Positions 5,514-22,580 of a stretch of 64,000 nt of DNA are shown here, in pieces; within the stretch, counting starts at the first letter, position 1, and each line of letters opens with the position of its first letter. Position numbers and translations under genes: made by a program. Source of the DNA: an uncultured bacterium (GTDB lineage Bacteria; Acidobacteriota; Thermoanaerobaculia; Multivoradales; JAHZIX01); the NCBI GenBank assembly GCA_965368975.1, contig CBDUPA010000002.1:160001-224000 (forward strand), read 5' to 3'. The notes beneath the pieces were generated by a model. The model saw only the letters and a list, made by a program, of their open reading frames with translations, searched no databases and was not told the origin of the DNA.

Positions 5514-7429
<1,916 letters not shown>

Positions 7430-7430
<1 letters not shown>

Positions 7431-8182
7431 TGAAGGTTACCCTCCATGTCTGGCGCCAGAACGGTCCTGAAGCCGAGGGCCGGATGGAAACCTACACCGT
7501 CGACGGGGTCAACGACGACATGTCGTTCCTGGAAGTCTTGGACACGCTCAACGAGCAGCTGACGCTCGAGGGCAAGGAGCCCGTCGCGTTCGATCACGAC
7601 TGCCGCGAGGGCATCTGCGGTGCCTGCGGCATGGTGATCAACGGCCAGGCTCACGGTCCTCTGGACAGCACCACGACCTGCCAGCTGCACATGCGTCACT
7701 TCAAGGGCGAGACCGAGTTCTACCTCGAACCCTGGCGCGCTCGCGCCTTCCCAGTGGTGCGCGACCTGGTCGTCGATCGCATGGCCTTCGACCGCATCAT
7801 CCAGTCGGGTGGCTACATCTCGGTCAACAGCGGCAGTGCACCGGAGGCCAACCTGACGCCCGTCGAGAAGGACGTCGCCGACCGCGCTTTCGACGCCGCC
7901 ACCTGCATCGGCTGCGGCGCCTGCGTGGCGCAGTGCCCGAACGGCGCGGCACAGCTCTTCACCGCCGCCAAGGTGTCGCACTTGAGCCTGCTGCCGCAAG
8001 GACAGCCGGAACGCTGGCACCGCGTCGAGGCGATGGTGGCACAGATGGAAGACGAAGCCTTCGGTAGCTGCACCAACTTCGCCGAGTGCGAGGCAGTGTG
8101 CCCGAAGGGCATCAGCATCGACTTCATCGCCCGCCTGAACGCGGACTTCCTGAAGGCCAAGGCGCGCAACGCCCAGAGCTGA
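7430..8182 (+). CDS. sdhB: Succinate dehydrogenase/fumarate reductase iron-sulfur subunit
   Basis: [16 protein letters not shown]...[14 protein letters not shown]; ATG overlaps the sdhA TAA (TAATG). Confidence 0.95.
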
Positions 8183-8212
8183 CGTTCAGGTAAGCTGAGA
8201 CTTGGCGATCGG

Positions 8213-8241
8213 AGCAGCTCTGAGGGGTACTCAGAGCTGCT
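8213..8241. terminator. Hairpin between convergent sdhB and hypothetical gene
   Basis: AGCAGCTCTGAG-GGGTA-CTCAGAGCTGCT, 12-bp perfect stem. Confidence 0.6.
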
Positions 8242-9562
8242 TGACGTCATCCAGATCAAGAGCGAAGAGCAACTGGAACGTGTCACGAATGCGCTGCTGC
8301 AGGTCCGGAGCCTGGCGCAGCGGACCTACCAGGGTGTTCGGATCCCGACTCTCACCCTCGATCCACAGGTTGGCGCACAGCACCTGGAGCGGTGGGCTGC
8401 CGGGTTCGAGGATCTGGGGATCGGTATCGTACACGCCGAGGTGTTCCAGCGTCGCGTGAGCAGCCAGGGCGCAGGCGTCGGGCAGGGCGAACAGCGACGG
8501 CTGGCGCTGCCGCAGAGCCATCGCTTGCTCTTGCCAGCGCACCAGGTTCTGCGCCGCCTGGGGATCATGCCGCGGCGCCAGCTCTCGGGCCCGGAAGGCC
8601 ATCCAGCCCGGCTTGGGCCAATTCAGACGGTCGCACACCATCTCGACCAGCTCGGTGCCGTTCGAGCCATCGGCCGAGACCATGATATCGAGTTCGTTGG
8701 CGGCTCGCACGGCTTCCAACAAGCGAGCGCCGGGCAGTAAGTCGCTCGTGCGCTGCACCACCGGTGCCGTGCAATGGTAGCGCCCTACTGGTGCCATCAG
8801 GGCCAGGTCGAGAAGATAGAGCGCGGTCCAGCGGGCCCTGCCGGGATCGTTCGGCAGCAGCGAGCGTAGCGGGTTGAGCGTGTGGCGGGCGGTTGCCGGC
8901 AGATCTCGCGACACCGGGTCTGGCAGGTCTTCGATCTGGGCCAGTTGCGCGGCTGCTTCCAGGATCATGCGCCCGCTGGCGATCACTGCCGGCGCCTGCG
9001 GTGGCGGTGTGTCCAGACGCCGCATCAGTCCTTGCCGCGGCAGACGCCAGCGCGGGCGCGGGCGGTCCTGCTGCAGGAGCAGGATCTCCTGGTACAGCCG
9101 GTTGAACTCGCCCAGGCCTTCGCTCAGGTGAGCGTCCAGGGTCAAGTGTGAGAGCCGCTGGCAGGACTCGTGGAGCTCTAGCGTCGCCTGCAGCATCTGC
9201 GCCACTACAGGATGCGTTTCTTGCTCCGCCCACGGCCTCAAGGGCCAGCCTCGACGACGGCCGTGGCGCAGACCGAAAGAGACGTTGGAGAGGATCGTCG
9301 AGGTCGCGATCTCGGAAATGTCGGTGACGAACTGGCCGAGACTGGTGCCGAGGATCTGCAGGCGGTGCTGTGCCGCGTGCGGGTGGCTCGGTGGCTGATG
9401 CAGGCGCTCCAGCAGGGCCAGCGGCTCCAGGTAGTGGCCCTGCGGGGCCACCAGGAGACAAGTGTTGGCGCGCCGTCCGTACGCTTCAGGGTTGAGGGAA
9501 GTAGCCGGCAATCGTTCGTGCCCGCAGCTCGGGATGGTTGGGCAGTTCCACCTCGACCTCAC
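8231..9562 (-). CDS. Hypothetical protein, possible degenerate zincin-like fold (start uncertain)
   Basis: Long ORF with protein-like composition filling the gap between the VWA gene and sdhB; HAAQH..Q..GT..G segment and a later HLSEG. Confidence 0.65.
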   Translation of the reverse strand: MRSRWNCPTIPSCGHERLPATSLNPEAYGRRANTCLLVAPQGHYLEPLALLERLHQPPSHPHAAQHRLQILGTSLGQFVTDISEIATSTILSNVSFGLRHGRRRGWPLRPWAEQETHPVVAQMLQATLELHESCQRLSHLTLDAHLSEGLGEFNRLYQEILLLQQDRPRPRWRLPRQGLMRRLDTPPPQAPAVIASGRMILEAAAQLAQIEDLPDPVSRDLPATARHTLNPLRSLLPNDPGRARWTALYLLDLALMAPVGRYHCTAPVVQRTSDLLPGARLLEAVRAANELDIMVSADGSNGTELVEMVCDRLNWPKPGWMAFRARELAPRHDPQAAQNLVRWQEQAMALRQRQPSLFALPDACALAAHATLEHLGVYDTDPQILEPGSPPLQVLCANLWIEGESRDPNTLVGPLRQAPDLQQRIRDTFQLLFALDLDDVKQL

Positions 9563-12500
9563 GCCAGCTGTCCTCGTCCCCGGGATCGGCCGGATAGTAC
9601 CCGAGCAGATACTGGCTACGCAGCTCGCGCTCGATCTCTTGATAGATAGCGCCTAGGTTGTTGGTGTTGGGCAGATAGTAGACTCGGCCGCCCGAGGCAT
9701 CGGTCAGGCGGTCGAGACGGCCGGTGAAGTTGCGCATACCGAGGCTCAAGTCATCGCCACGTGCAACACCGGGGTGGAGCACGATCAGGTAGATCGGCAC
9801 CCCGGCCCGCTGCGCCAGCTGGTAGCAGGTACGGAACGGCATCTCTTCTTCTTCAACGGCACCGTCCGAGAACAGCACCAGGGCCTTCTTGCCACGCACC
9901 GCCTGCAGTTCGAGCAGCGAGAACACCACCGCTTCCCACAGGTCGGAATCGCCACTGGCCTCAAGGCTGTCGATACCGGTTACCAGACGCTTGAGATCAC
10001 CGCTCAGTGCGCGCGAAAGCCGAGGGTCGGTGTCGAAGTCGACCAGGAACGCCGCGTCGCGGTCCGACAGCACGGCGCGCACGAAGTCACCGGCCGCTTG
10101 CTGCACCGCTGGCAATTTGACGAACATGCTGGCCGACGAGTCGATCGCCAGACCGAGCGTCAAGGGAAGCGAGCCGGCGTCTTCGAAGGCCTCGACGCTC
10201 TGGCGGCTGCCGTCTTCCTTGACGATGAAGTCCTCGGCCGTCAATCCCTGCACCGGCTTGCCATCAGCGTCCGTGACGACGGTGTACAGCTCGACCAGGC
10301 GAATACTCACCCGTTCGGCGAAATCGGGATCGTCCGGGATCAGCACGTCTTCGGCCATGCGACCATCGTCGAGAAAGGCCGCGGCGCGCAAGAATCCGTC
10401 GGTGCTTGGCAGCACGACGCGTTGGCGTAGCGGTGGGCCGTAGAGCGTGGCCAGCAGCTGGTCGTTCCAAGAAAGCTCGACGCGATCCAGCCGCCGGCCA
10501 ACCGGCACGTTGACGTCGACCGCCACGTCGGTGGGACCAGGCTGCAGCCGCGAGGGCTGGGTCAGGAAGACACGGAAGTTGCCGCCGGCGTCGTTGATCA
10601 GCAGAATGTCGCGTCCGACCTCCTGGCCGGCGGGGCCGTAACCCACGACCCAGAGTGTGCGCCGCTGCGGCAGGTTGCCGAGTCGGATGCGTGCCTCGTA
10701 GGGCGGTGCGTCGACTTCGGCGACCTGCTCACCATCGAGGAAGAAGACAACCCGCTGCACGATGCTGCTCTGCACGCGCGCCTCGAAGGTCACACGGCCG
10801 CGCAGCACTTCCTCGTCTGGAGCCAGCAGGCGGATCGCCCTGGGTCGCGCGAGCAGAGACTCTTCGCGGGCTGGCCGTGCCGTCGACTCGGCGGCCTGCG
10901 CCAGCGCGCTGGTCGCTCCAGCGCCAGACACGGCAGCAACGGTGCCGCCCCAGGTCGACGACTCCAGATCCTCGACCAGCACCACGACACGATCCGCCCC
11001 GGTGGGCAGCTCCAGTTCGCGCTCGACCAGCCAATCCTGCTGCTCCGCCAGGCCGCCGACGTTGCGCACCTCGTGCAGCAGCCGCAGGGTCGACCCGTCG
11101 GCCGCCGCCAACCCGTAGGTGACCCGGATGTTCGTCTGCTGGCGGGCTGGCCGGGCGGAATCGGCCGCGGCGGAGTCGGCTGTGGCGGAATCCGCCAGTG
11201 GCGTCAGGTCCGTGCGAGTCTGCAACAAGCCGCTGCGCACCTCAGGAGCATCCAGAGTGTCAGCACCCCGGTCGGACGCGTCATCGCTCGCCGGATCGAG
11301 CTGCAACGACGACAACATCTCCAGCTGACCGTCTTCGAGTTCACCACGCAGCAAGCGCCGCACCCGAGCGGCAGCAACGGTTTCCGGAGGCGTACGCGAC
11401 ACCCAGGCACGGCTGCGCAGATTCCACTCGTCACCTCGACCATCGGAGGGGCTGTCGACGCGGATCGGCAGTGCACCGTCTGCCGACCGCGGCAAGGGCA
11501 CGCGCAAGGTCCAAGCACGCGCCTGCTGTTCGACGACCGGAATCAGCTGGCGCGGGTCCGCCACTGGCGCACCGCCGGTGATCCGGGCCAAGGTGCGCAT
11601 CGCCGCCTGGGCATCCAGCAACACGGGAGTATCGCTGGCCTGCACTACTTCTTCTTCACCCTGGAGCCGCCGACGCAAGCTCTCCAGCGACACCGAAACC
11701 CAAGGCACAGCCGTGGGCGCGTCGCGCGTCGCAGCTTCGAAGTCGTCGAGGTCGTAGGCGTCCTGCGCTGGTGCCTCTTCGACCTGCAGCGGACCGAAGA
11801 CCACCGGCACTGTCGTCCAACCATAGATCGACAGCGTCCGCGCGAGGTCCAGCACGAGACCGGAAAGATCGGGCACGGCGCCGCTGCGCCGCAGCTGTTC
11901 GGCCTGGTCGACGGGCAGGACATCGAGGTAGAAACGTTCCGGTTCGAGATCGAAGCCGTCGGTGATCCAGAACAGCAGGCGCCGTTCTCCCGGCGCCGGC
12001 AAGGGACGGCGCGCTACCCAGGTCAGTAAGTGGTCGACCTGCCGGCGCAGTAAGGCCTGCTCTTCGGCCATCGCTTCACGCACACGCTCCGCGAGGCTGG
12101 ACGCCGCTGGGCTGCTCAGCACGCTATCGTCGCGCCGCAGCCTCTCGACCTGCTGCAGAAACTGACGTCGACGGGTGCGCAGCTCGTCGCTGCCGCCGTC
12201 TTGGGTGGCCTGGTTGGCCCGAATCGCCCCTTGACTCAGGGAGCTGTCGAGCAGCAGAGGATCCCGGGTCGCGGGCAGGGTAACCCGTGGATCCGGCTGC
12301 GCCCGCACCACTTCGACGGCGCCAACATCGGTGAGCTGGCGTGCCGCTTCGGTGAAGGCGAGCGCGGCGCGGCGCAGAGTGCTGTCACCGGCCAGGCTGT
12401 GGTCGAAGTAGAGCACCACGTCCCACGGCGAATCGAGTCGGCGCAAGGGGCCGGCTAGCGGGCGCTCGACGAACTCGACCGGCACCCGTTGGCCGTCGAC

Positions 12501-12863
12501 CGTCACCGTCAGATCGCCAGCATCGAGGTCGAAGACGGGTTGGTTGCCGCCGTCGAGGGCCAGGAGGCGGAGTTCGATGCTGGCTTCGCCCGCTACCGCG
12601 GCTCCAGGGATCTGGGTACCAGGAGGATTGGCCGTCCGCGTCGCGGCGAGCGGGGCCTGAGCGTGCGTCGCGGGCAACCCTGCCAGCAGCAGTACTGTGA
12701 ACAGCAGTACGGCTGGCAGCAGAGCCGGCAGCCGTGTTGCTCGTGGGTGAGCGATCGGCGCCGGGCGCCGTCGGCGCTGTGCCGTCGAAGGCGGCGCAGC
12801 GGCAAAATGGTAGAAGGAGCGGTCGATCCAGTACATGGTAGAGGCGCCCCGGTCTGCTCGCAA
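9486..12863 (-). CDS. Secreted VWA domain protein (acidobacterial VWFA type) with Ig-like domains (start uncertain)
   Basis: Signal-like hydrophobic stretch; C-terminal VTDADGKPVQGLTAEDF, MIDAS DSSASM, KKALVLFSDG, ELRSQYLLGY; N-terminal degenerate VWA copy. Confidence 0.85.
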   Translation of the reverse strand: MRADRGASTMYWIDRSFYHFAAAPPSTAQRRRRPAPIAHPRATRLPALLPAVLLFTVLLLAGLPATHAQAPLAATRTANPPGTQIPGAAVAGEASIELRLLALDGGNQPVFDLDAGDLTVTVDGQRVPVEFVERPLAGPLRRLDSPWDVVLYFDHSLAGDSTLRRAALAFTEAARQLTDVGAVEVVRAQPDPRVTLPATRDPLLLDSSLSQGAIRANQATQDGGSDELRTRRRQFLQQVERLRRDDSVLSSPAASSLAERVREAMAEEQALLRRQVDHLLTWVARRPLPAPGERRLLFWITDGFDLEPERFYLDVLPVDQAEQLRRSGAVPDLSGLVLDLARTLSIYGWTTVPVVFGPLQVEEAPAQDAYDLDDFEAATRDAPTAVPWVSVSLESLRRRLQGEEEVVQASDTPVLLDAQAAMRTLARITGGAPVADPRQLIPVVEQQARAWTLRVPLPRSADGALPIRVDSPSDGRGDEWNLRSRAWVSRTPPETVAAARVRRLLRGELEDGQLEMLSSLQLDPASDDASDRGADTLDAPEVRSGLLQTRTDLTPLADSATADSAAADSARPARQQTNIRVTYGLAAADGSTLRLLHEVRNVGGLAEQQDWLVERELELPTGADRVVVLVEDLESSTWGGTVAAVSGAGATSALAQAAESTARPAREESLLARPRAIRLLAPDEEVLRGRVTFEARVQSSIVQRVVFFLDGEQVAEVDAPPYEARIRLGNLPQRRTLWVVGYGPAGQEVGRDILLINDAGGNFRVFLTQPSRLQPGPTDVAVDVNVPVGRRLDRVELSWNDQLLATLYGPPLRQRVVLPSTDGFLRAAAFLDDGRMAEDVLIPDDPDFAERVSIRLVELYTVVTDADGKPVQGLTAEDFIVKEDGSRQSVEAFEDAGSLPLTLGLAIDSSASMFVKLPAVQQAAGDFVRAVLSDRDAAFLVDFDTDPRLSRALSGDLKRLVTGIDSLEASGDSDLWEAVVFSLLELQAVRGKKALVLFSDGAVEEEEMPFRTCYQLAQRAGVPIYLIVLHPGVARGDDLSLGMRNFTGRLDRLTDASGGRVYYLPNTNNLGAIYQEIERELRSQYLLGYYPADPGDEDSWREVEVELPNHPELRARTIAGYFPQP

Positions 12864-12918
12864 AGGTGGTGCGGCAACCGGCGACGCCCCTAGAGATTAT
12901 TGGATCGGAGAGGTTAGC

Positions 12919-13716
12919 TCAAGCCGTAGCTTCCAAAAGCATGTCTTCCAATCCCAGAAGGCGAGCCATCTGCGGATCTGGAGCACGCACTTCCAGCGGT
13001 TTCAGGTACAGCGTCGTGGCCGCATTGATCGGCTTTGCCGCCAGTTCTCGCAGTGGCCGACGCTCGATCACCGGATCGCAAACGAGGTAGTGCGCTGCCT
13101 GGTAGATGACGACTTCGTGCTCCGGCGGATAGGTCTGCAGCAGAATGTCGACCAACACCTGCAACCCCTGCTGGTTGTACTCCTGCGACTGAAAGGTCAG
13201 GTCGCCGACGCAGCCCGCCTGCCAGATCACCAGTGCGCTACCGGGATCGAAGCGGCGGTGGGTCAGCAGAAAGTCGGTGGCTTCGAAGCTCTGGCAACCG
13301 ACCGGCCCCGGGTCGATACCGAGGTCCGCGAACAGGCAGTCTTCGGCCGAGATACCGGGCAACATCTGGGCCTCGTAACCCTCCTCGCGTGCGCGCCGTA
13401 CCGCCTCGTGCGACGGATTGACGAAGACCCCGGGATGACCGTAGAAGGCGGCGCAGACGTGCAGACCTTCGCGCACCAACTCGAGCATTCGATCGACCAT
13501 CTGGCCATAGGTCTCGAAGCGCGGCTTGTCGTCGCCGTAGAAACGGAACAGCGACTCCGTGTTGGGGTTGAGCGAATCGAGCCAATCCTGGGCCAGTTGA
13601 TCCGCCATGACGTAGAGAACGCGGTCCGCCCTGCGAATGTGTGCGATCGCTTCTTGGGTGGTGTGAGCACCGACCTGGATGCCGGTGCCGACGATGGTCA
13701 AAGAGCCAGCTTTCAA
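12919..13716 (-). CDS. Borosin-type peptide alpha-N-methyltransferase (tetrapyrrole methylase fold; OphMA/SonM homolog)
   Basis: GSLTIVGTGI, Y-x3-K-x-R-x3-Y (YGDDKPRFETY), AFYGHPGVFVNPSH, PGISAEDCLFADLGIDP, GCQSFEATDFL, WQ; TTG start with AGGAGG RBS. Confidence 0.9.
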   Translation of the reverse strand: MKAGSLTIVGTGIQVGAHTTQEAIAHIRRADRVLYVMADQLAQDWLDSLNPNTESLFRFYGDDKPRFETYGQMVDRMLELVREGLHVCAAFYGHPGVFVNPSHEAVRRAREEGYEAQMLPGISAEDCLFADLGIDPGPVGCQSFEATDFLLTHRRFDPGSALVIWQAGCVGDLTFQSQEYNQQGLQVLVDILLQTYPPEHEVVIYQAAHYLVCDPVIERRPLRELAAKPINAATTLYLKPLEVRAPDPQMARLLGLEDMLLEATA

Positions 13717-13763
13717 GGGTTCGCCTCCTAAAGGCAGTCCATGAGATAGGGAAACTCAACAAA

Positions 13764-13794
13764 CCCCGGCAACCGCGTGAAGCCGTTGCCGGGG
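13764..13794 (-). terminator. Intrinsic terminator/attenuator between precursor and methyltransferase
   Basis: Minus strand CCCCGGCAAC-N11-GTTGCCGGGG followed by TTTGTT. Confidence 0.65.
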
Positions 13795-13821
13795 CGACCG
13801 TGGAGAGGTATGGGGGGAGTG

Positions 13822-14079
13822 TCAGGCCGTGGCCTGGTAGATCTCGCGCGTCTGCACGCCGAGCATGATGATCGGCGAGGGTTGAACATCAGTGGTGAGA
13901 AAGCGCATCTGACTCTCTTCGCGGCGCTGCAGGGCGTCCTGGTGATGAGTGGACAGGCCGCTGGCCTGGAGAAGATCCTGCGGGGAACGGCGGAAATCCA
14001 CCGCCTGCATCGGGTCGCTGACCAGTTGCAAGAGGAACTGCTTCAGGTTGTTCGAGTCGTTGCTGCTCTGATGGATCAT
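13822..14079 (-). CDS. Split-borosin precursor peptide (borosin-binding/LigA-like helical leader plus C-terminal core)
   Basis: LKQFLLQLVSDP...DFRRSPQDLLQASGLSTHHQDAL matches the SonA-type leader pattern; core-like tail PSPIIMLGVQTREIYQATA; RBS GGAGA; directly upstream of the methyltransferase. Confidence 0.85.
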   Translation of the reverse strand: MIHQSSNDSNNLKQFLLQLVSDPMQAVDFRRSPQDLLQASGLSTHHQDALQRREESQMRFLTTDVQPSPIIMLGVQTREIYQATA

Positions 14080-14298
14080 CTGGCAATCTCCAAGTAGATG
14101 AATTCAAGGGGGGAATTCAGGTTACGACGCTTGATGTGATGCAAGAACCTCGATGAGAGTTCGATCGAGGCCAGCTCTGCATGGGAGCTGAAGGCTCCGC
14201 GACAGACCGGCGGGCAACCGCCAGAGCGGCACCCGATCGGGCACCGCTGCCGTGCTTCATGCGTTCATGGGCTCAGACGAACGTCGGGCGAGAAACGT

Positions 14299-14317
14299 GA
14301 ATTTTCTGGAATTTTCT
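14299..14317. promoter_or_regulatory. Direct repeat GAATTTTCT x2 (10-bp period), candidate regulator site
   Basis: Exact 9-mers at 14299-14307 and 14309-14317, AT-rich within a GC-rich context, upstream of the precursor. Confidence 0.35.
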
Positions 14318-14339
14318 CTTGCCGGCGCCGATCGGGCGA

Positions 14340-17300
14340 TCAGCTGGCTTCTTGCGTGAGCTGCTGGAAGGTGGCGGCCACGGGATTGTGAACCCAGAAG
14401 CGGCGCTGTGCCGGTCCGGAAAGGTGGCCCGAGATGCGGCGCAAGAGAATGCCAGCCTTCTCCCGATGGTCGTCCCCAGCGCCGGCTTGATAGAGGACTA
14501 GGTGTAGCTCGGCCCGAAGACTCACAGGCATTCGGTCGTGTGTCTCGACAGTCTGCGGGTCTGCTTCCCCGATCAAAGCCAAGTAGGCCTGCGGCAGGAT
14601 GCCGGGAGTATCCAGGGAATACTCGACCGAGAGATCGGAGGCTTCCATGAGCAAGGGCCTTGCGGAACGGAGGTTCTCTCTCCGAATGAAGAGCCTTGCC
14701 AGCGACATGGCGATTTCCGCCTCAGCACGCTTGGCGCTAAGTTCTTGATGAAATTCGAGAGCGGAGTGATAGAGCCTCTCCGCCTGATCCAGATCGCCCC
14801 GAGCAAACGCCAGATCTCCCAGGTAGAGCGAGAAATAGCCTTCAAGATATATAGCCTCGGTCAACCTTGCTAGTTGCAACCCTTGCTGCAGTACCTCTTC
14901 GGCCTCTTCGAGCTTCCCCTCGTCCAGAGCAAGACGGCCCAGCAATCCAAGGGTCAATCCTTCTCCCTGGCGGAAACCGATCTCCTTGGACAACCGCAGG
15001 CTTTGCCCCAACTCGGAGCGGGCACGCTCGTAGTCTCCCAGATTGCGCAGTGTCAGTCCCAACATGGCACTGATACGCACTCTCAACTCGAGCGAATGCA
15101 CCTGTTCGACGTGATCCATCCCTGCATCAAACTGGCTCAAAGCCGACTCGTATCGTCCCATCCCCAGGAGAGCGCCGCCCACCGCGAGGCGACATGCTGC
15201 CTGCAGGTGAAGATCCTGAAGGTCCTGAGCCAGCTTCAGACGTCGCTCCAGCCACGTCAGCGAGTCCTCGAACTCTCCCAGTTGCAGTGACACACTGCCC
15301 ATGAGACCGAGTACTTCGGCGTGCAAGTCGTCGTCCTCGTGCCTTTCGGCATACTGGAGAGGAGGCTGCAGCGCACTACGCGCCTCCCAGTAGCGTGCTC
15401 GGTTCATCAACAGGCGAGCCTGCGCGACTTCGGCCCAGGCGACGCGTCCGGGATCCTCCGCGCTACGTGCGGCTTCCAGTGCTGCCACGGCCGTCTCGTT
15501 CTCTTCCTCGCGATAACCCATGAGGTCGAGACACTCGGTCTGCCGCAACAGAACATCACAGCGAAGGGCCGGATCAGTGACAACCCTCAGCGCGATCTGG
15601 CTCAGCTCCAACAAGGTCTCGTGCTGGTAGCGACGGGCCAGGAAGTCCAGCGCCCGCAGCAACGTTCGCCCCCCCCTCTCGATGTCGCCGCCGCGCAGGA
15701 AGTGCTCACACAGGAAGACTGCCTCGCGGCCGGAGATCTCCTCGGCCGGCAAGCTGGCCAAGCCTTCGCGCTCTTCGTAAACCTCGGCCAGGCGCCGGTG
15801 CGCCGCCCAGCGCTCGTCCGGTGACAAGCGGGCCGCCAGCATCTCCGGCAGTTGGTGCTGGTCAAATCGATAGTCGGTACCCAGAGCCCACACCACGCCG
15901 CTACGCCGCTCGATCGCCGCCAGCTGATCCAGGACCTGCAGGCGCTTGAGGCCAAGCATGTGTGCCACCAAGTCAGGGTCGAAGTTGTAGCCCTGCAGTG
16001 ACGCGGTTCCGAGCAAGTCGAGCTGTTCGTCGCTCAACGCAGCGAGGCGCGTCTCCAGCAGCTCGCGCACGGAAGCCGGAATCTCGAGCACCGCGAGCTC
16101 GTCGTGCAGGCTGTAGGCACCGCCCGCCGACGGCCGCAGGTTGCCGCGCGAAATCAAGTCGTGGACGATCTCGCTGATGAAGAAGGGATTGCCGTCGGCG
16201 CGCACCGCCAGCCGCGGACCCAACTGCTCGGCGGTGCTGGTCGATGCCAACATTTCGTCGAGCAAGCGTACGACCTGGCGCTCAGATAACCGCGACAGGT
16301 GGATCTTGCGGCAGTGGTCGAGCTGCCGCACGTCTTCGAGCTGGGGCACGCTGGTGCCCGAGCGGCAGGTGCCGATCAACAGGATCGGGTGGCCATCGAC
16401 CTCGCGTGCCAGCGCACGGAAGTAGTTCAGGGTTTCCTGCCCGGCAAACTGCAAATCTTCGACGATCCACAGCACTGGCCGCTCGCTGGCCAGTGCACAG
16501 GCGAGGTAGGACAGCACCGCCTGCAGAGCTTCCTTGGGCAGGGGTTCGACGTCGGCAGGGGGCAGCCGACCGCGCAGCAGGGCAGCGAACGCCGGCACCA
16601 GACGCGTGGTCAGAGACAGGTACCGCTGCAGCTGCGACTCGAGCTGGAACTCGCCGAGATGCTCGTGGACCGCCTGGAACAGTGGATTGACCGATGCCCG
16701 CGGCTGGGCCGCGCCGTAGAGCACGTGCAGGCCTTGGCTCGACTCGGCCAGGCGCTGTAGGAACGCATCGACCAACCGTGTCTTACCGATACCGGCTTCA
16801 CCTTCGAGCAACACGACCCTACCGCGGCCGCGGCTGGAGTCGCGCAGCAGCGCATGCAGGGTCTCCAGCTCGGTAAAGCGACCGACGAACGGCACCGCAC
16901 GCGAAACGTCCAGTCGGCGCAGCTCGTCGTAGCGGTTCTCCTGCCGCAGCTCGTGCTCACGCTGCTGCCACCAGGCCGACTCCTCGCCCTGATCGAGCAC
17001 TTCGATCAACGCCTCCGCCGAGCCGAAACGCTCGCTAGGCTCCTTGAGCATCAGACGCACCACGACTTCTTCCAGCAGCGGTGTGATGCGACTGTTGAGG
17101 TGGCCCATCTTGGGCGGTACGTGCTGCAGGTGACGCTGAATGGTGGCGCGGGTGTTGCGGCCATGGAACGGCTGCACTGTCGTCGCCGCCTCGTACAGAA
17201 TGACGCCAAGAGAATAGAGGTCCGAGGCCGGCGTCACGACCTCGCAGCGGATCTGCTCCGGTGGTGCGTACATCAGAGTGCCGACGAAGCCTCCGTCGCG

Positions 17301-17933
17301 AGTCAGCCGTTCGGTCCCCTGGTTGTCCAGCCACAGGGCTAGGCCAAGATCCATCAACTTGACGCTGTAGTCCGGCGTCATCAGGATGTTGGTCGGCTTG
17401 AGGTCGCGGTGCGTCGCACCGATCGCGTGCAGGGCGCTGAGACCGCGAGCGATCTGCAGTGCCAGTTGACGCAAGAGTGCGTCCGCCAGAGCTCCATGCT
17501 GGCGCATCAAGGCACGCAGGGTGCGCCCCTGCACGTACTCCAGCACCAGGTAGTGGATCGGCACGCCGTCGACGACGAGGTCGCCGGAGTCGTAAGTCCG
17601 GATGATCGCCGGATGATCGATCCGCTGCCCAATTTCCGCCTCGCGATAGAAGCGTTCGAGCAGCGATGGCACGTCGAGGCAGCTGGGGTGCATCACCTTG
17701 ACGGCGACCTGCGAGCCGATCGGCAGGTAGGGAGTCGAGGTGATCAGGCGAGCGCTGTAGACTGTGCTGGTCGCACCGCTGCCCAACTCGTTCTCGAGTT
17801 TGCAGGGACCCAGTCTTTGACCGACGAGGAACTTACCGGCTCGACGCGACGGCGCGATGGCGGCCTCCTCATGGACAGCGCTTCCACTACCGATAGAAGC
17901 GACCTGACGGATGTTCAACTCGCTCGAGCTCAC
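14340..17933 (-). CDS. Ser/Thr protein kinase - STAND/AAA ATPase - TPR protein
   Basis: Kinase motifs GSGATS, VAVK, HRDLKPTN, DLG, GTLMYAPPE; Walker A GEAGIGKT, Walker B WIVED, GNPFF; C-terminal TPR-like helices; no TM segment evident. Confidence 0.9.
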   Translation of the reverse strand: MSSSELNIRQVASIGSGSAVHEEAAIAPSRRAGKFLVGQRLGPCKLENELGSGATSTVYSARLITSTPYLPIGSQVAVKVMHPSCLDVPSLLERFYREAEIGQRIDHPAIIRTYDSGDLVVDGVPIHYLVLEYVQGRTLRALMRQHGALADALLRQLALQIARGLSALHAIGATHRDLKPTNILMTPDYSVKLMDLGLALWLDNQGTERLTRDGGFVGTLMYAPPEQIRCEVVTPASDLYSLGVILYEAATTVQPFHGRNTRATIQRHLQHVPPKMGHLNSRITPLLEEVVVRLMLKEPSERFGSAEALIEVLDQGEESAWWQQREHELRQENRYDELRRLDVSRAVPFVGRFTELETLHALLRDSSRGRGRVVLLEGEAGIGKTRLVDAFLQRLAESSQGLHVLYGAAQPRASVNPLFQAVHEHLGEFQLESQLQRYLSLTTRLVPAFAALLRGRLPPADVEPLPKEALQAVLSYLACALASERPVLWIVEDLQFAGQETLNYFRALAREVDGHPILLIGTCRSGTSVPQLEDVRQLDHCRKIHLSRLSERQVVRLLDEMLASTSTAEQLGPRLAVRADGNPFFISEIVHDLISRGNLRPSAGGAYSLHDELAVLEIPASVRELLETRLAALSDEQLDLLGTASLQGYNFDPDLVAHMLGLKRLQVLDQLAAIERRSGVVWALGTDYRFDQHQLPEMLAARLSPDERWAAHRRLAEVYEEREGLASLPAEEISGREAVFLCEHFLRGGDIERGGRTLLRALDFLARRYQHETLLELSQIALRVVTDPALRCDVLLRQTECLDLMGYREEENETAVAALEAARSAEDPGRVAWAEVAQARLLMNRARYWEARSALQPPLQYAERHEDDDLHAEVLGLMGSVSLQLGEFEDSLTWLERRLKLAQDLQDLHLQAACRLAVGGALLGMGRYESALSQFDAGMDHVEQVHSLELRVRISAMLGLTLRNLGDYERARSELGQSLRLSKEIGFRQGEGLTLGLLGRLALDEGKLEEAEEVLQQGLQLARLTEAIYLEGYFSLYLGDLAFARGDLDQAERLYHSALEFHQELSAKRAEAEIAMSLARLFIRRENLRSARPLLMEASDLSVEYSLDTPGILPQAYLALIGEADPQTVETHDRMPVSLRAELHLVLYQAGAGDDHREKAGILLRRISGHLSGPAQRRFWVHNPVAATFQQLTQEAS

Positions 17934-19938: not shown

Positions 19939-21261
19939 ATGCCGGCCGTGCCGTTTTCGAGTCTCGACGCCGCCGCCTTCTCCCGTGCCCTCGCGCAAAT
20001 CGCCGAATACCCCGACGACTTGGTGGACGTGTATCTGGAACGGCGTGAAGACGTCGACCTGGCACCTGAAGACGAGGGCCCGGGCCTGCGCGTATGGCGC
20101 GAGGAAGGCCTGGCGGTACGCCTGGTGCGTGACGGCCACACCTGGCTGGCCTCACGCGACACCCTGGATGCGCGCCTGTTCAGCGACGCCCTGCGACAAG
20201 TAGCACGCGCCTTGCCATCCGCCGCCTATCCGGAACCGCGCCTGCAGGTGGCACCGTGGCAGCGCGACCCTGACACCGCCGAGGTCCAGACCTTCCCGTC
20301 GGCCGTCCAGCGCGCGCTGCGCCAGCGTCACGTCGCCTTCCCCCTGCGCCTGTCGGTCCGGCGCCACCGCCGCTGGCTGCAAGTCATCGGACCGCACCTG
20401 GTACCGGCGCAGCAGCAGGAGAGCTTCTACAGCTGCGTCTGCGAGCTACCCTGGTCGCGCTTCGGCACGCTGCTGCCCGAACTCGGTGAGGCTGGCGTCG
20501 AGACCTTCACCGCCCAGCTGCTCGGGTACTTCCGCAGCCGTCAGGCGACGCCGCCGGACACTTGCCGCGGCGTCGTCGTCCTCGATGCCAGCGCCACGGC
20601 TGTCCTGCTGCACGAGGCCGTCGCACATGCGCTGGAAGCCGACACGCTGGCGCTGGGCGGCAAACCGGACGCCGCCATCGGCCTGCGCATCGGCGCCGAG
20701 GGTCTCAACGTGCTCGACGACCCCGCCGCCGCCCCCACAGGCGTGCGCCGTGACACCGACGACGAAGGCGTCCAGGTGAGTCGACGCTGGTTGCTGCGCG
20801 ACGGCATCGTCGAGCAACCGCTGGCCGATGGCGCCTGGGCGAGTGGTTGGGACGGCTTACAGCCCGGCTGCGGCCGCCGCAGTCACCGCCACCTACCGCC
20901 GGTGCCGCGCTCCAGCTACTTGGAGCTACTGCCTGGCGACTGCGACCTCGACGACCTGCTCTACGACGCCGACGGCGGACTCTTCGTCACCGAAGCGTCG
21001 CGCGGCAGCCTCGACCCACTCACAGGTGCTTTCACCCTGCACCTGCCCTACGCTCGACGTATCCGAGGCGGCGAGATCGCCGATGCGGTCGGCCCGTGCA
21101 GCTTGCACGGCAGCGTCAGCGATTTGCTCAGCCTGGTGCGCGGCATCGGCACCGAGACGCGCCCCGCTGGCGCCGGCTGGTGCGCCAAAGGCGGCGTCAA
21201 GGTACCCGTGTGGGCACGCGCCCCCGCCATCCGGCTCGAAGGCGTCGAGGTGACGCCGTGA
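19939..21261 (+). CDS. tldD: TldD/PmbA family metalloprotease, catalytic TldD-like subunit (start 19939 or GTG 19948)
   Basis: LLHEAVAHALEAD (HExxxH), DDEG, C-terminal GWCAKGG Cys ligand. Confidence 0.8.
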   Translation: MPAVPFSSLDAAAFSRALAQIAEYPDDLVDVYLERREDVDLAPEDEGPGLRVWREEGLAVRLVRDGHTWLASRDTLDARLFSDALRQVARALPSAAYPEPRLQVAPWQRDPDTAEVQTFPSAVQRALRQRHVAFPLRLSVRRHRRWLQVIGPHLVPAQQQESFYSCVCELPWSRFGTLLPELGEAGVETFTAQLLGYFRSRQATPPDTCRGVVVLDASATAVLLHEAVAHALEADTLALGGKPDAAIGLRIGAEGLNVLDDPAAAPTGVRRDTDDEGVQVSRRWLLRDGIVEQPLADGAWASGWDGLQPGCGRRSHRHLPPVPRSSYLELLPGDCDLDDLLYDADGGLFVTEASRGSLDPLTGAFTLHLPYARRIRGGEIADAVGPCSLHGSVSDLLSLVRGIGTETRPAGAGWCAKGGVKVPVWARAPAIRLEGVEVTP

Positions 21262-22580
21262 CACGGAGCCTGCCCATCGTCACCGAGACGCTCGAAGCCG
21301 TCGGACAGTTGCAGGAAGGACGCTTCTCCGAAGTCGAGGTCTTCCACAAGCGTGGCCGCTCGCGCCGCCTGGAGCTGAGCGTTGGTGGCCGCCGCTCCCT
21401 GACCACCCACGAAACCGGTTGGGCAGTGCGGGCCGGCGACCGTCGCGGCTCTTTCTTCGCTGCCGGCACCGGCGCCCCCAAGCCTGCTGGCCCCTGGCCC
21501 GAGGCGGACGGTGCACCGATCCGCCTGCCCGAACCTACGAGTGCTCCGAACTGGAGCGCACCCCCCGACCTCGACGCCCCCCTGATCGGTGAGCGCGAAG
21601 GCCTCAATCTGCTGGACAGCATCGCCGCCGCGCTGGCCCGCGAGTTGCCCGGCGCGCGCCTGCTGCAGAGTGCCGTCGAGGACGGTTCGAGCGAAACCTG
21701 GATCGCCAGCAGTCGCGGCATCGACGCCGCCTTCCGCAGCCGCCTAGCGTCCCTCTACCTCGAAGGCGCCGGCCCCGGCCGCCTCGGCCCCACCGCCGCT
21801 TTCTACCTCGCCGAACGGGAGGCCCGGCGCTTCAACCCGCTGGCCCTGGCCCGCCGTCTCGCCGATCGTCTGCAGATGGCCCACGAAGGCGAACCGCGCC
21901 AGCGCGACCGCGGCGAGATGCTGCTCGCACCGCCCGTCATGTGTCGCATCCTCGCCGGGCTGCTGCCCCTGTGGTGCGGGCCGCAAGCCGCTGGCCGTGC
22001 CGAAGCGCTGCAAGACCGCCGCGGCCATCTAGGCAGCGAACACCTGACGCTTCTCGACAACGGCCGCCTGCCCGGCGGAGCGCTCGAGGCACCAGTCGAC
22101 GGCGAAGGTGTACCGACGCGCGAAGTCGTCCTCGTCGATCACGGCGTCTTTCGCCATCCGTTGGTCCCTTGGTGGCAATGCCCCGACGAACCCTGGGCCA
22201 CCGGCTGCAGCCGCCGCCCCGGCTGGCGAGATCTGCCGACGCCTATGCCCACACACCTCTACCTGCGCCCACGCTCGGGCGTCAGCGTCGCCACGCTCCT
22301 GCAGGACATCACCCGCGGCTATTACCTGATCGACGTCACCGCCAGCGGCCACTTCGACCTCGAAGGCGATCGCTTCTCCCTGCCCGTGTGCGGTTTCGAG
22401 ATGCGCAACGGCCGTGCTACCGCCCCCATCGCACGCACCCAGTTGTGCGGTAGTATCTCCGCCCTACTGCGCGGCGTGCAGGCCGTGGCCCGTGACCTCT
22501 CCTTCCAACCCCTACGCGGCATGATCGGCAGCCCGACCGTCCTGGTCAGCGGCCTGGAACTGCGCGGCCAGTCCTCCTGA
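21258..22580 (+). CDS. pmbA: TldD/PmbA family protein, non-catalytic PmbA/TldE-like subunit
   Basis: GTGA overlap with tldD; VDGEGVPT, GDRFSLP, GSPTVLV; lacks HExxxH. Confidence 0.75.
   Translation: MTRSLPIVTETLEAVGQLQEGRFSEVEVFHKRGRSRRLELSVGGRRSLTTHETGWAVRAGDRRGSFFAAGTGAPKPAGPWPEADGAPIRLPEPTSAPNWSAPPDLDAPLIGEREGLNLLDSIAAALARELPGARLLQSAVEDGSSETWIASSRGIDAAFRSRLASLYLEGAGPGRLGPTAAFYLAEREARRFNPLALARRLADRLQMAHEGEPRQRDRGEMLLAPPVMCRILAGLLPLWCGPQAAGRAEALQDRRGHLGSEHLTLLDNGRLPGGALEAPVDGEGVPTREVVLVDHGVFRHPLVPWWQCPDEPWATGCSRRPGWRDLPTPMPTHLYLRPRSGVSVATLLQDITRGYYLIDVTASGHFDLEGDRFSLPVCGFEMRNGRATAPIARTQLCGSISALLRGVQAVARDLSFQPLRGMIGSPTVLVSGLELRGQSS

Follow-up and report, generated by a model that had tools for sequence, protein, structure and literature searches.

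What is made by two short adjacent genes of which one would be filed by automated annotation among the tetrapyrrole methylases and the other among the hypothetical proteins? The question is raised by a 64,000-nucleotide stretch of DNA (hereafter the window) from an uncultured bacterium of the Thermoanaerobaculia (Acidobacteriota; NCBI GenBank assembly GCA_965368975.1, contig CBDUPA010000002.1, positions 160,001 to 224,000), in which a protein of 265 residues and one of 85 residues are encoded side by side. A sequence-only reading of the window had proposed that they form a split borosin, a system for a peptide that is made on the ribosome and altered after translation (RiPP) in which an alpha-N-methyltransferase acts on the backbone of a separate precursor. 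Our analysis indicates that the locus is very probably a Type IV 'split' borosin RiPP pair, composed of a SonM/OphMA-type enzyme and a separate SonA-type precursor. The gene structure is established: both open reading frames (ORFs) that the reading had placed on the minus strand are present there, each with its own Shine-Dalgarno sequence a few nucleotides (nt) before its start codon.

12919..13716, minus strand: borosin alpha-N-methyltransferase gene, 265 residues, TTG start; SonM/OphMA-type by family, without fused binding domain or core
13724..13729, minus strand: Shine-Dalgarno sequence AGGAGG of the methyltransferase gene, 7 nt before the TTG
13822..14079, minus strand: SonA-type precursor gene (by sequence and predicted fold), 85 residues, ATG start
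14088..14091, minus strand: Shine-Dalgarno sequence GGAG of the precursor gene, 8 nt before the ATG

The two ORFs are separated by 105 nt and have third-position GC contents of 0.76 and 0.81, beside 0.77–0.78 in the flanking genes; longer shadow ORFs on the plus strand are unlike them in this respect (0.65–0.67). The TTG start is also present in an 82%-identical enzyme homologue on a metagenome contig (L035). As judged by expect (E) values, homology is far above chance for both products (6e-62 for the enzyme and 1e-14 for the family profile of the precursor).

Family membership of the enzyme follows from its matches among solved structures (E ≤ 0.01), all 25 of which are borosin alpha-N-methyltransferases (E 6e-62 to 7e-51): two sequences of dbOphM(A) (6e-62), 13 of OphMA (3e-61 to 1e-59), six of SonM (~1e-57; best 9e-58) and four of MroMA (7e-51). 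The enzyme thus clusters with the borosins and not with CysG/CobA/RsmI/MazG-type methylases, the grouping that the sequence-only reading had named beforehand as telling against it. The two borosin motifs on which that reading had relied are also in place, namely Y60-GDD-K64-P-R66-FET-Y70 (YxxxKxRxxxY) and F91-YGHPGVFVNPSH-103. The signature motifs of borosin methyltransferases appear as F91-YGHPGVF-98 and E125-DCLFADL-132; YGHP and DCLFAD together constitute the borosin detection rule of Imani et al. (preprint 10.1101/2021.12.24.474128, Fig. 4 legend). When the enzyme is aligned with 18 homologues, no variation is seen at Y92-G93-H94 and D126-C127-L128, and 90% or more of the sequences retain Y60, R66, Y70, F98 and W165. 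Residues R67, Y71 and Y93, and also F99, E146, W166 and Q167, are reported in the available portion of PMC8429565 as functionally tested in SonM, and R66, Y70, Y92, F98, E145, W165 and Q166 of the window enzyme are spaced as in that series, with intervals of 4 and 22 across R66-Y70-Y92 equal to those across R67-Y71-Y93. The alignment with OphMA ends at residue 254 and no further domain is found in the 265 residues; the enzymes of loci L006 and L008, by contrast, carry a C-terminal fusion to a binding domain. By family, then, the 265-residue protein is a borosin alpha-N-methyltransferase, and methylation of backbone amides is its predicted activity.

The 85-residue protein is small and divergent, and on its own it yields weak matches to solved structures (E 0.017–0.094), although all seven are to SonA. 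A SonA-like ORF adjoins the enzyme gene in 13 of the 13 related loci examined, and when the window precursor was aligned with the 13 precursors found beside related enzyme genes, the resulting profile (A1) retrieved SonA in its top seven rows from the Protein Data Bank (1e-14 to 5e-14), followed by the binding-domain region of OphMA/dbOphM (residues 321-371; E 0.003–0.006). Weak rows for TAL effector repeats in the same table, with no stretch passing alone, are not relevant. An AlphaFold2 model built on A1 has five helices (residues 5-21, 23-31, 33-40, 44-51 and 55-61) and a disordered tail of 24 residues (62-85), with a predicted local distance difference test score of ~90 over residues 11-50 and a mean of 73.8. 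Compared with known folds by Foldseek, the model places SonA chains at all of ranks 1-16 (probability 0.77–0.99, target-normalised template-modelling score 0.57–0.80), with LigA of LigAB ranked next; no match reaches E ≤ 0.001 in this search, as is expected because the domain is so small. The SonA matches by sequence and profile, the five-helix model and the SonA ranks in the fold comparison together argue that the 85-residue protein is, by sequence and predicted fold, a SonA-type precursor, made up of a borosin-binding domain and, after it, a single C-terminal core, which agrees with what the sequence-only reading had made of this upstream gene. Its parts are as follows.

13897..14079, minus strand: leader, the predicted borosin-binding domain; precursor residues 1-61, five helices in the model; matches SonA residues 3-58
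13825..13896, minus strand: core and tail TTDVQPSPIIMLGVQTREIYQATA; precursor residues 62-85, disordered in the model
13861-13872, minus strand: predicted methylation zone I70-L73, in register with SonA L63/I65 (SonA alignment and the available part of PMC10549244)

In loci L031 (9669-10124, minus strand) and L030 (7825-8319, minus strand), the binding domain of the precursor is preceded by an N-terminal extension, 90-100 residues long, that is rich in Lys/Ala and resembles histone H1; the window precursor is without a basic extension.

The C-terminal tail VQPSPIIMLGVQTREIYQATA, to which the sequence-only reading had drawn attention, corresponds to residues 65-85. In the ungapped alignment with SonA, residues 3-58 of 7LTC chain B fall on precursor residues 11-66, an offset of 8 that puts SonA D56 on D64 and L63-V64-I65 on I71-M72-L73. 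According to the accessible text of PMC10549244, SonM methylates L63 and I65 of SonA (...QSYLVISHGNGD), and shewanellamide A is DSSYQSYL(Me)VI(Me)SHGNGD. It is reasonable, though unproven, to regard the IIML stretch as the target of backbone N-methylation, a proposal that this register weakly supports.

Relatives of the precursor show which parts of the tail are kept. A word-index search retrieved the query alone; relatives emerged when 1.84 billion representatives were searched exhaustively with HMMER, which gave six proteins at E ≤ 0.001 with the query included. Among them, P0125 (89 residues, a 39%-identical precursor) contains ...STPIIIFGVQQ... within ...LSTPIIIFGVQQDG..., and other proteins of the set terminate in YVIMLVG, AYIIVWPW (present twice in a protein of two modules) or ITIIVVVVIL. 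On metagenome contig L035, a precursor ending ...DDTQPAAIIIVGFQSPTYQAYA (...HQDALQRRDESQLRFLADDTQPAAIIIVGFQSPTYQAYA) precedes the 82%-identical enzyme. The core motif PII(I/M)xG(V/F)Q is therefore conserved in two distant relatives, L035 and P0125, the latter at 39% overall identity, and their tails indicate that the aliphatic run and the G-x-Q flank are kept while other positions, including the Ser/Thr positions of the core, drift. The core had been called unfamiliar, and this holds in part: a Pro-flanked IIML differs from the YLVI of SonA, but the PIIxxGxQ motif recurs in relatives. The two-module protein, P0127 (145 residues), consists of two complete binding-domain-plus-core modules, each with ...IIVWPWR or ...YIVWPWR at its end; a giant protein, P0124 (2878 residues), has seven stretches matching the binding-domain region of the precursor.

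Imani et al. (10.1101/2021.12.24.474128) give more than 1,600 putative borosin clusters; in their network, Type IV, the split architecture, has 746 members (78.8%). It is marked by a stand-alone enzyme of ~250-300 residues with no fused domain and a separate, adjacent SonA-like precursor of 50-100 residues. The window enzyme stands alone at 265 residues without an added domain, the adjacent short precursor is homologous to SonA and has a five-helix domain in its model, and this precursor carries a single aliphatic C-terminal tail with a conserved motif, for which methylation in trans is predicted. Since Type IV is the commonest published borosin architecture, the pair is a further, uncharacterised example of a system already known and widespread. 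Its closest characterised counterpart in architecture, SonM/SonA of Shewanella oneidensis MR-1 (PDB 7LTC and 7LTE, among others; PMC8429565 and PMC10549244, in the portions available), likewise has a discrete enzyme of ~265 residues (SonM, E 9e-58), a separate precursor of 70-85 residues in which a binding domain of five helices precedes a single C-terminal core, aliphatic residues aligned to the methylated L63/I65, and a cluster without a protease. The two systems differ in that the window precursor is ~20-24% identical to SonA, with a longer tail (22 residues past the aligned Asp, as against 16 in SonA) and a Pro-flanked IIML core instead of YLVI; in that the neighbour is a Ser/Thr kinase-STAND-TPR protein whereas the son cluster has a GGDEF protein (Imani et al.); and in that the host belongs to the Acidobacteriota rather than the Gammaproteobacteria. 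OphMA/dbOphMA, the fungal Type I fused enzymes of the omphalotin pathway (PDB 5N0N and 6MJF), give the top enzyme matches (6e-62 to 1e-59, over residues 2-254) and share the YYxxxKxRxxxY and FYGHPGVFVNPSH motifs, but OphMA carries its binding domain and core as fusions to the enzyme, with methylation taking place within the dimer, whereas the substrate in the window is encoded by a separate gene.

These likenesses suggest how the pair would work. The 85-residue protein would dock onto the S-adenosylmethionine (SAM)-dependent enzyme through its N-terminal five-helix binding domain, and its disordered C-terminal tail would enter an active-site cleft formed by R66, Y70, Y92 and probably Y60. Methylation would then run from N to C terminus, at one or a few amide nitrogens of the backbone within P69-I70-I71-M72-L73-G74-V75, with I71 and L73 the likeliest sites by the SonA register, and a protease encoded elsewhere may free a linear peptide of ~20 residues beginning near D64. 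The relative supply of the two proteins may be set by an element in the spacer.

13750..13794, minus strand: GC-rich hairpin in the precursor-enzyme spacer, followed by UUUGUUGAGUUU, with a 10-bp stem (13785-13794 / 13764-13773); probable attenuator or partial terminator

L035 retains the stem (CCCCGGCA/TGCCGGGG) but differs in the loop and flanks, and similar hairpins with U-rich tails lie 3' of the precursor in L022 and L023, the two other loci whose intergenic spacers exceed 200 nt. The whole precursor-enzyme spacer is not unusually stable (z = -1.4). A scan of 12500-14600 for consensus promoters and terminators reported nothing, the hairpin included, which it probably missed because the 11-nt loop exceeds the 3-8 nt limit of the scan. 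The hairpin is probably an attenuator that favours the precursor transcript and would raise it over that of the enzyme. No RNA sequencing run with the locus was found, beside four DNA runs with small shares of it (0.08–0.16), which says nothing either way about expression. Farther upstream, GAAAATTC occurs twice at a spacing of 10 nt (14299-14316, minus strand), just 3' of the kinase stop codon and ~220 nt upstream of the precursor ATG; the 64-kb window holds no other copy, 0.5 would be expected, and two were reached in 7 of 100 shuffles. Closer to the precursor start there is a GAATTC...GAATTC pair (~14100-14122). An operator or a promoter element may be present here.

A collection of 5.8 billion proteins holds at least 7,055 enzyme homologues at E ≤ 1e-40 (8,000 candidates scored); among the matches listed the closest are 96%, 82% and 64% identical and all others are at most 59% identical. 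Two homologue names cite Acidobacteriota or Thermoanaerobaculia as the source, which, with the TIGR03436 'acidobact_VWFA' match of a neighbouring gene, points to Acidobacteriota as the probable source of the window. Of 40 related genomes, 11 have a borosin enzyme gene, with at most 54% identity to that of the window, and so do 11 of 300 further genomes from across the phylum (E ≤ 1e-40). The window enzyme is not placed with support in the enzyme tree, and we therefore make no claim about its origin. A pattern scan of genome contigs gave five loci (43–50% identity). A second pair lies in the same genome as the window, on contig C10 (genome G000, locus L022), with the precursor at 8188-8421 and the enzyme at ~8620-9474, both on the plus strand. 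The C10 precursor has 78 residues, ends ...VLPAIFQITTALEDLHAS and is ~26% identical to that of the window, and the C10 enzyme is 54% identical to the window enzyme. Two Reg_prop/Y_Y_Y sensor histidine kinases and a response-regulator-LpxC fusion flank the C10 pair, a context kept in four genomes of the same family.

Related loci vary in several ways. Tandem borosin methyltransferase paralogues, two or three together and 37-46% identical to the window enzyme, occur in L025 (7947-8681), L026 (8679-9422) and L030 (9290-10096), and L038 and L039 have three borosin enzyme genes each. The usual order is precursor then enzyme, whereas in L024 and L028 the precursor is divergent from the enzyme gene, with start codons ~60-160 nt apart. 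Two kinase-linked loci have candidate leader peptidases in the form of papain-family Peptidase_C1 genes that adjoin the precursor (L025, 9917-10846, and L031, 10278-11213, both on the plus strand), and in a third, L028, the enzyme adjoins a radical SAM gene (6976-8403, minus strand). These peptidase and radical SAM neighbours of L025, L031 and L028 have no counterpart in the window.

On the minus strand of the window the gene order is kinase (14340-17933), precursor, enzyme, VWA protein (9486-12863) and a 443-residue unknown. The VWA protein, 55 nt downstream of the enzyme, has 1125 residues, an N-terminal hydrophobic segment, an Ig-like domain and a match to the VWA family TIGR03436 'acidobact_VWFA' (1e-57); the 443-residue protein that follows (8231-9562, minus strand) has no family match and is unrelated to a 447-residue unknown beside the L032 kinase. 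We do not count these two genes, nor those for a 199-residue unknown and a carboxyltransferase, as part of the system because none has a counterpart in the related loci. The upstream neighbour is of a type that recurs.

14340..17933, minus strand: Ser/Thr protein kinase - AAA_16 (STAND) - TPR protein, 1197 residues, no predicted membrane helix; conserved neighbour type, possible functional partner

Pfam places Pkinase (6e-42), AAA_16 (1e-20) and TPR_12/TPR_MalT in this protein. Its best NCBIfam match is the 'TOMM system kinase/cyclase fusion protein' (TIGR03903), at 243 bits far under the cut-off of 706; we take this family to be defined by association with another RiPP class. In 13 larger loci, taken around the enzyme genes of 11 relatives and C10, a Pkinase gene stands beside the borosin pair in eight; it directly adjoins the pair in six of these and is one gene removed in the other two. 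Pfam TPR matches are present in seven of the eight kinase-linked loci (the exception is L029), and the L032 kinase is a full-length relative of the window kinase-AAA_16-TPR protein (38.5% identity over 1,197 residues). A hydropathy scan places a membrane helix between kinase and TPR in five of the related kinases and none in that of the window. In the phylum sample, a kinase lies within the fetched stretch in four of seven loci and is adjacent in three, two of the seven being cut by contig ends.

Several observations weigh against the assignment of the pair as a split borosin of known type, or against its details. Y60 aligns with the OphMA Tyr, yet a simple offset puts SonM Y58 on F57. No protease or exporter is linked to the pair, the nearest peptidase-like gene being of PmbA/TldD type (20847-22580) and 7 kb away. 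The specificity of the enzyme may differ from that of SonM, because the closest enzyme among the 40 related genomes is 54% identical. Site prediction from the SonA register is weak, because the regiospecificity of SonM, as described in the available portion of PMC11751858, is set by a bulky residue preceding the first methylated site and not by distance from the binding domain. A more radical alternative is that the 265-residue protein belongs to the ordinary methylases of tetrapyrrole, YabN or RsmI type and that the 85-residue ORF is an unrelated hypothetical or LigA-like protein. General tools lean this way, since the Pfam match is limited to the TP_methylase family (PF00590, 4e-21), the best NCBIfam match is YabN, and public homologues are named 'precorrin-3B methylase', 'YabN...', 'SAM-dependent methyltransferase' or 'hypothetical protein', much as the sequence-only reading had foreseen of automated labels; the precursor profile, moreover, weakly touches LigA-type dioxygenase domains (gallate dioxygenase, 0.0075; LigA 1b4u, 0.7). 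We regard this alternative as effectively refuted, because YabN scores 38 bits against a cut-off of 525 and CysG/CobA reach E values of 0.015–0.08, no tetrapyrrole or rRNA methylase is among the 25 structural matches, the borosin-specific motifs are invariant, SonA ranks first by sequence and fold, and no LigB-like partner, cobalamin or siroheme genes lie nearby. The gallate dioxygenase row is weak and not relevant, and a LigA subunit was likewise rejected as the identity of the 85-residue protein, which matches no Pfam family at E up to 0.1. That this protein merely docks, as a binding-domain protein or decoy, with the true substrate elsewhere (for instance the second precursor on C10), is improbable. 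The genome does hold two enzymes and two precursors, and Type V clusters carry the binding domain on the enzyme and not on the substrate (Imani et al., 10.1101/2021.12.24.474128), but each precursor lies directly beside its own enzyme, the two precursors share ~26% identity, and the window tail has the conserved aliphatic motif typical of cores.

The remaining alternative retains the enzyme-substrate pair and changes its purpose: rather than a secreted natural product, the methylated protein or peptide would act in a signalling circuit with the adjacent kinase-STAND-TPR protein, as ligand, regulator or substrate. We consider this possible but unlikely. The kinase association described above is consistent with it, as a kinase within 4 kb on either side would be expected by chance in 4.5–10% of cases (34-90 kinase genes per genome of 5.4-7.1 Mb), and so is the placement of the other 5 of the 13 loci (C10 and the four same-family genomes) between Reg_prop/Y_Y_Y sensor histidine kinases and a response-regulator-LpxC fusion. 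A signalling neighbourhood is, furthermore, a known borosin theme, because GGDEF signalling genes are present in 56% of split borosin clusters and Type X consists of TPR-GGDEF fusions to the borosin enzyme (Imani et al., 10.1101/2021.12.24.474128); neither 'kinase' nor 'acidobacter' occurs in the main text of either borosin preprint (Imani 2021; RODEO 2024), whose supplements, or Table 1 of Imani et al., may list Pkinase or this pair. The absence of a linked protease or exporter also fits a signalling role. However, adjacency is not interaction, and the kinase counts are drawn from related genomes that are not independent observations. The architectures of the kinases vary, five having a membrane helix that the window kinase is without; gene orientation is variable; the enzyme tree, in which support is weak, does not join the window enzyme to the other kinase-linked ones; and the Ser/Thr positions of the core are not conserved. 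A split borosin pair of Type IV remains our preferred reading of the locus.

As such, the two genes give a small couple of enzyme and substrate that can be cloned, from a phylum that has been little studied, and their differing core (Pro-flanked IIML) could help to test what governs regiospecificity. Shewanellamide A is given in the available text of PMC10549244 as the sole known bacterial borosin product. The recurrent sensor-kinase neighbours suggest a signalling role and bear on what split borosins are for, and this recurrent pairing is the most interesting open lead from the locus. Backbone N-methylation confers protease resistance and membrane permeability on peptides. More speculatively, and with slightly less confidence than we give to a signalling role at this one locus, the split borosin pairs of Acidobacteriota could be the peptide arm of a signalling module, in which the methylated peptide or the methylated 85-residue protein is recognised by the TPR repeats of the adjacent kinase and the second pair forms a parallel circuit. 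If so, the receiver would be a soluble kinase-STAND-TPR protein here and, in relatives, a membrane receptor kinase with its TPR domain facing outward, the circuit of the C10 pair would be wired to sensor histidine kinases and a response-regulator-LpxC fusion, and backbone N-methylation would mark a signal rather than arm an antibiotic.

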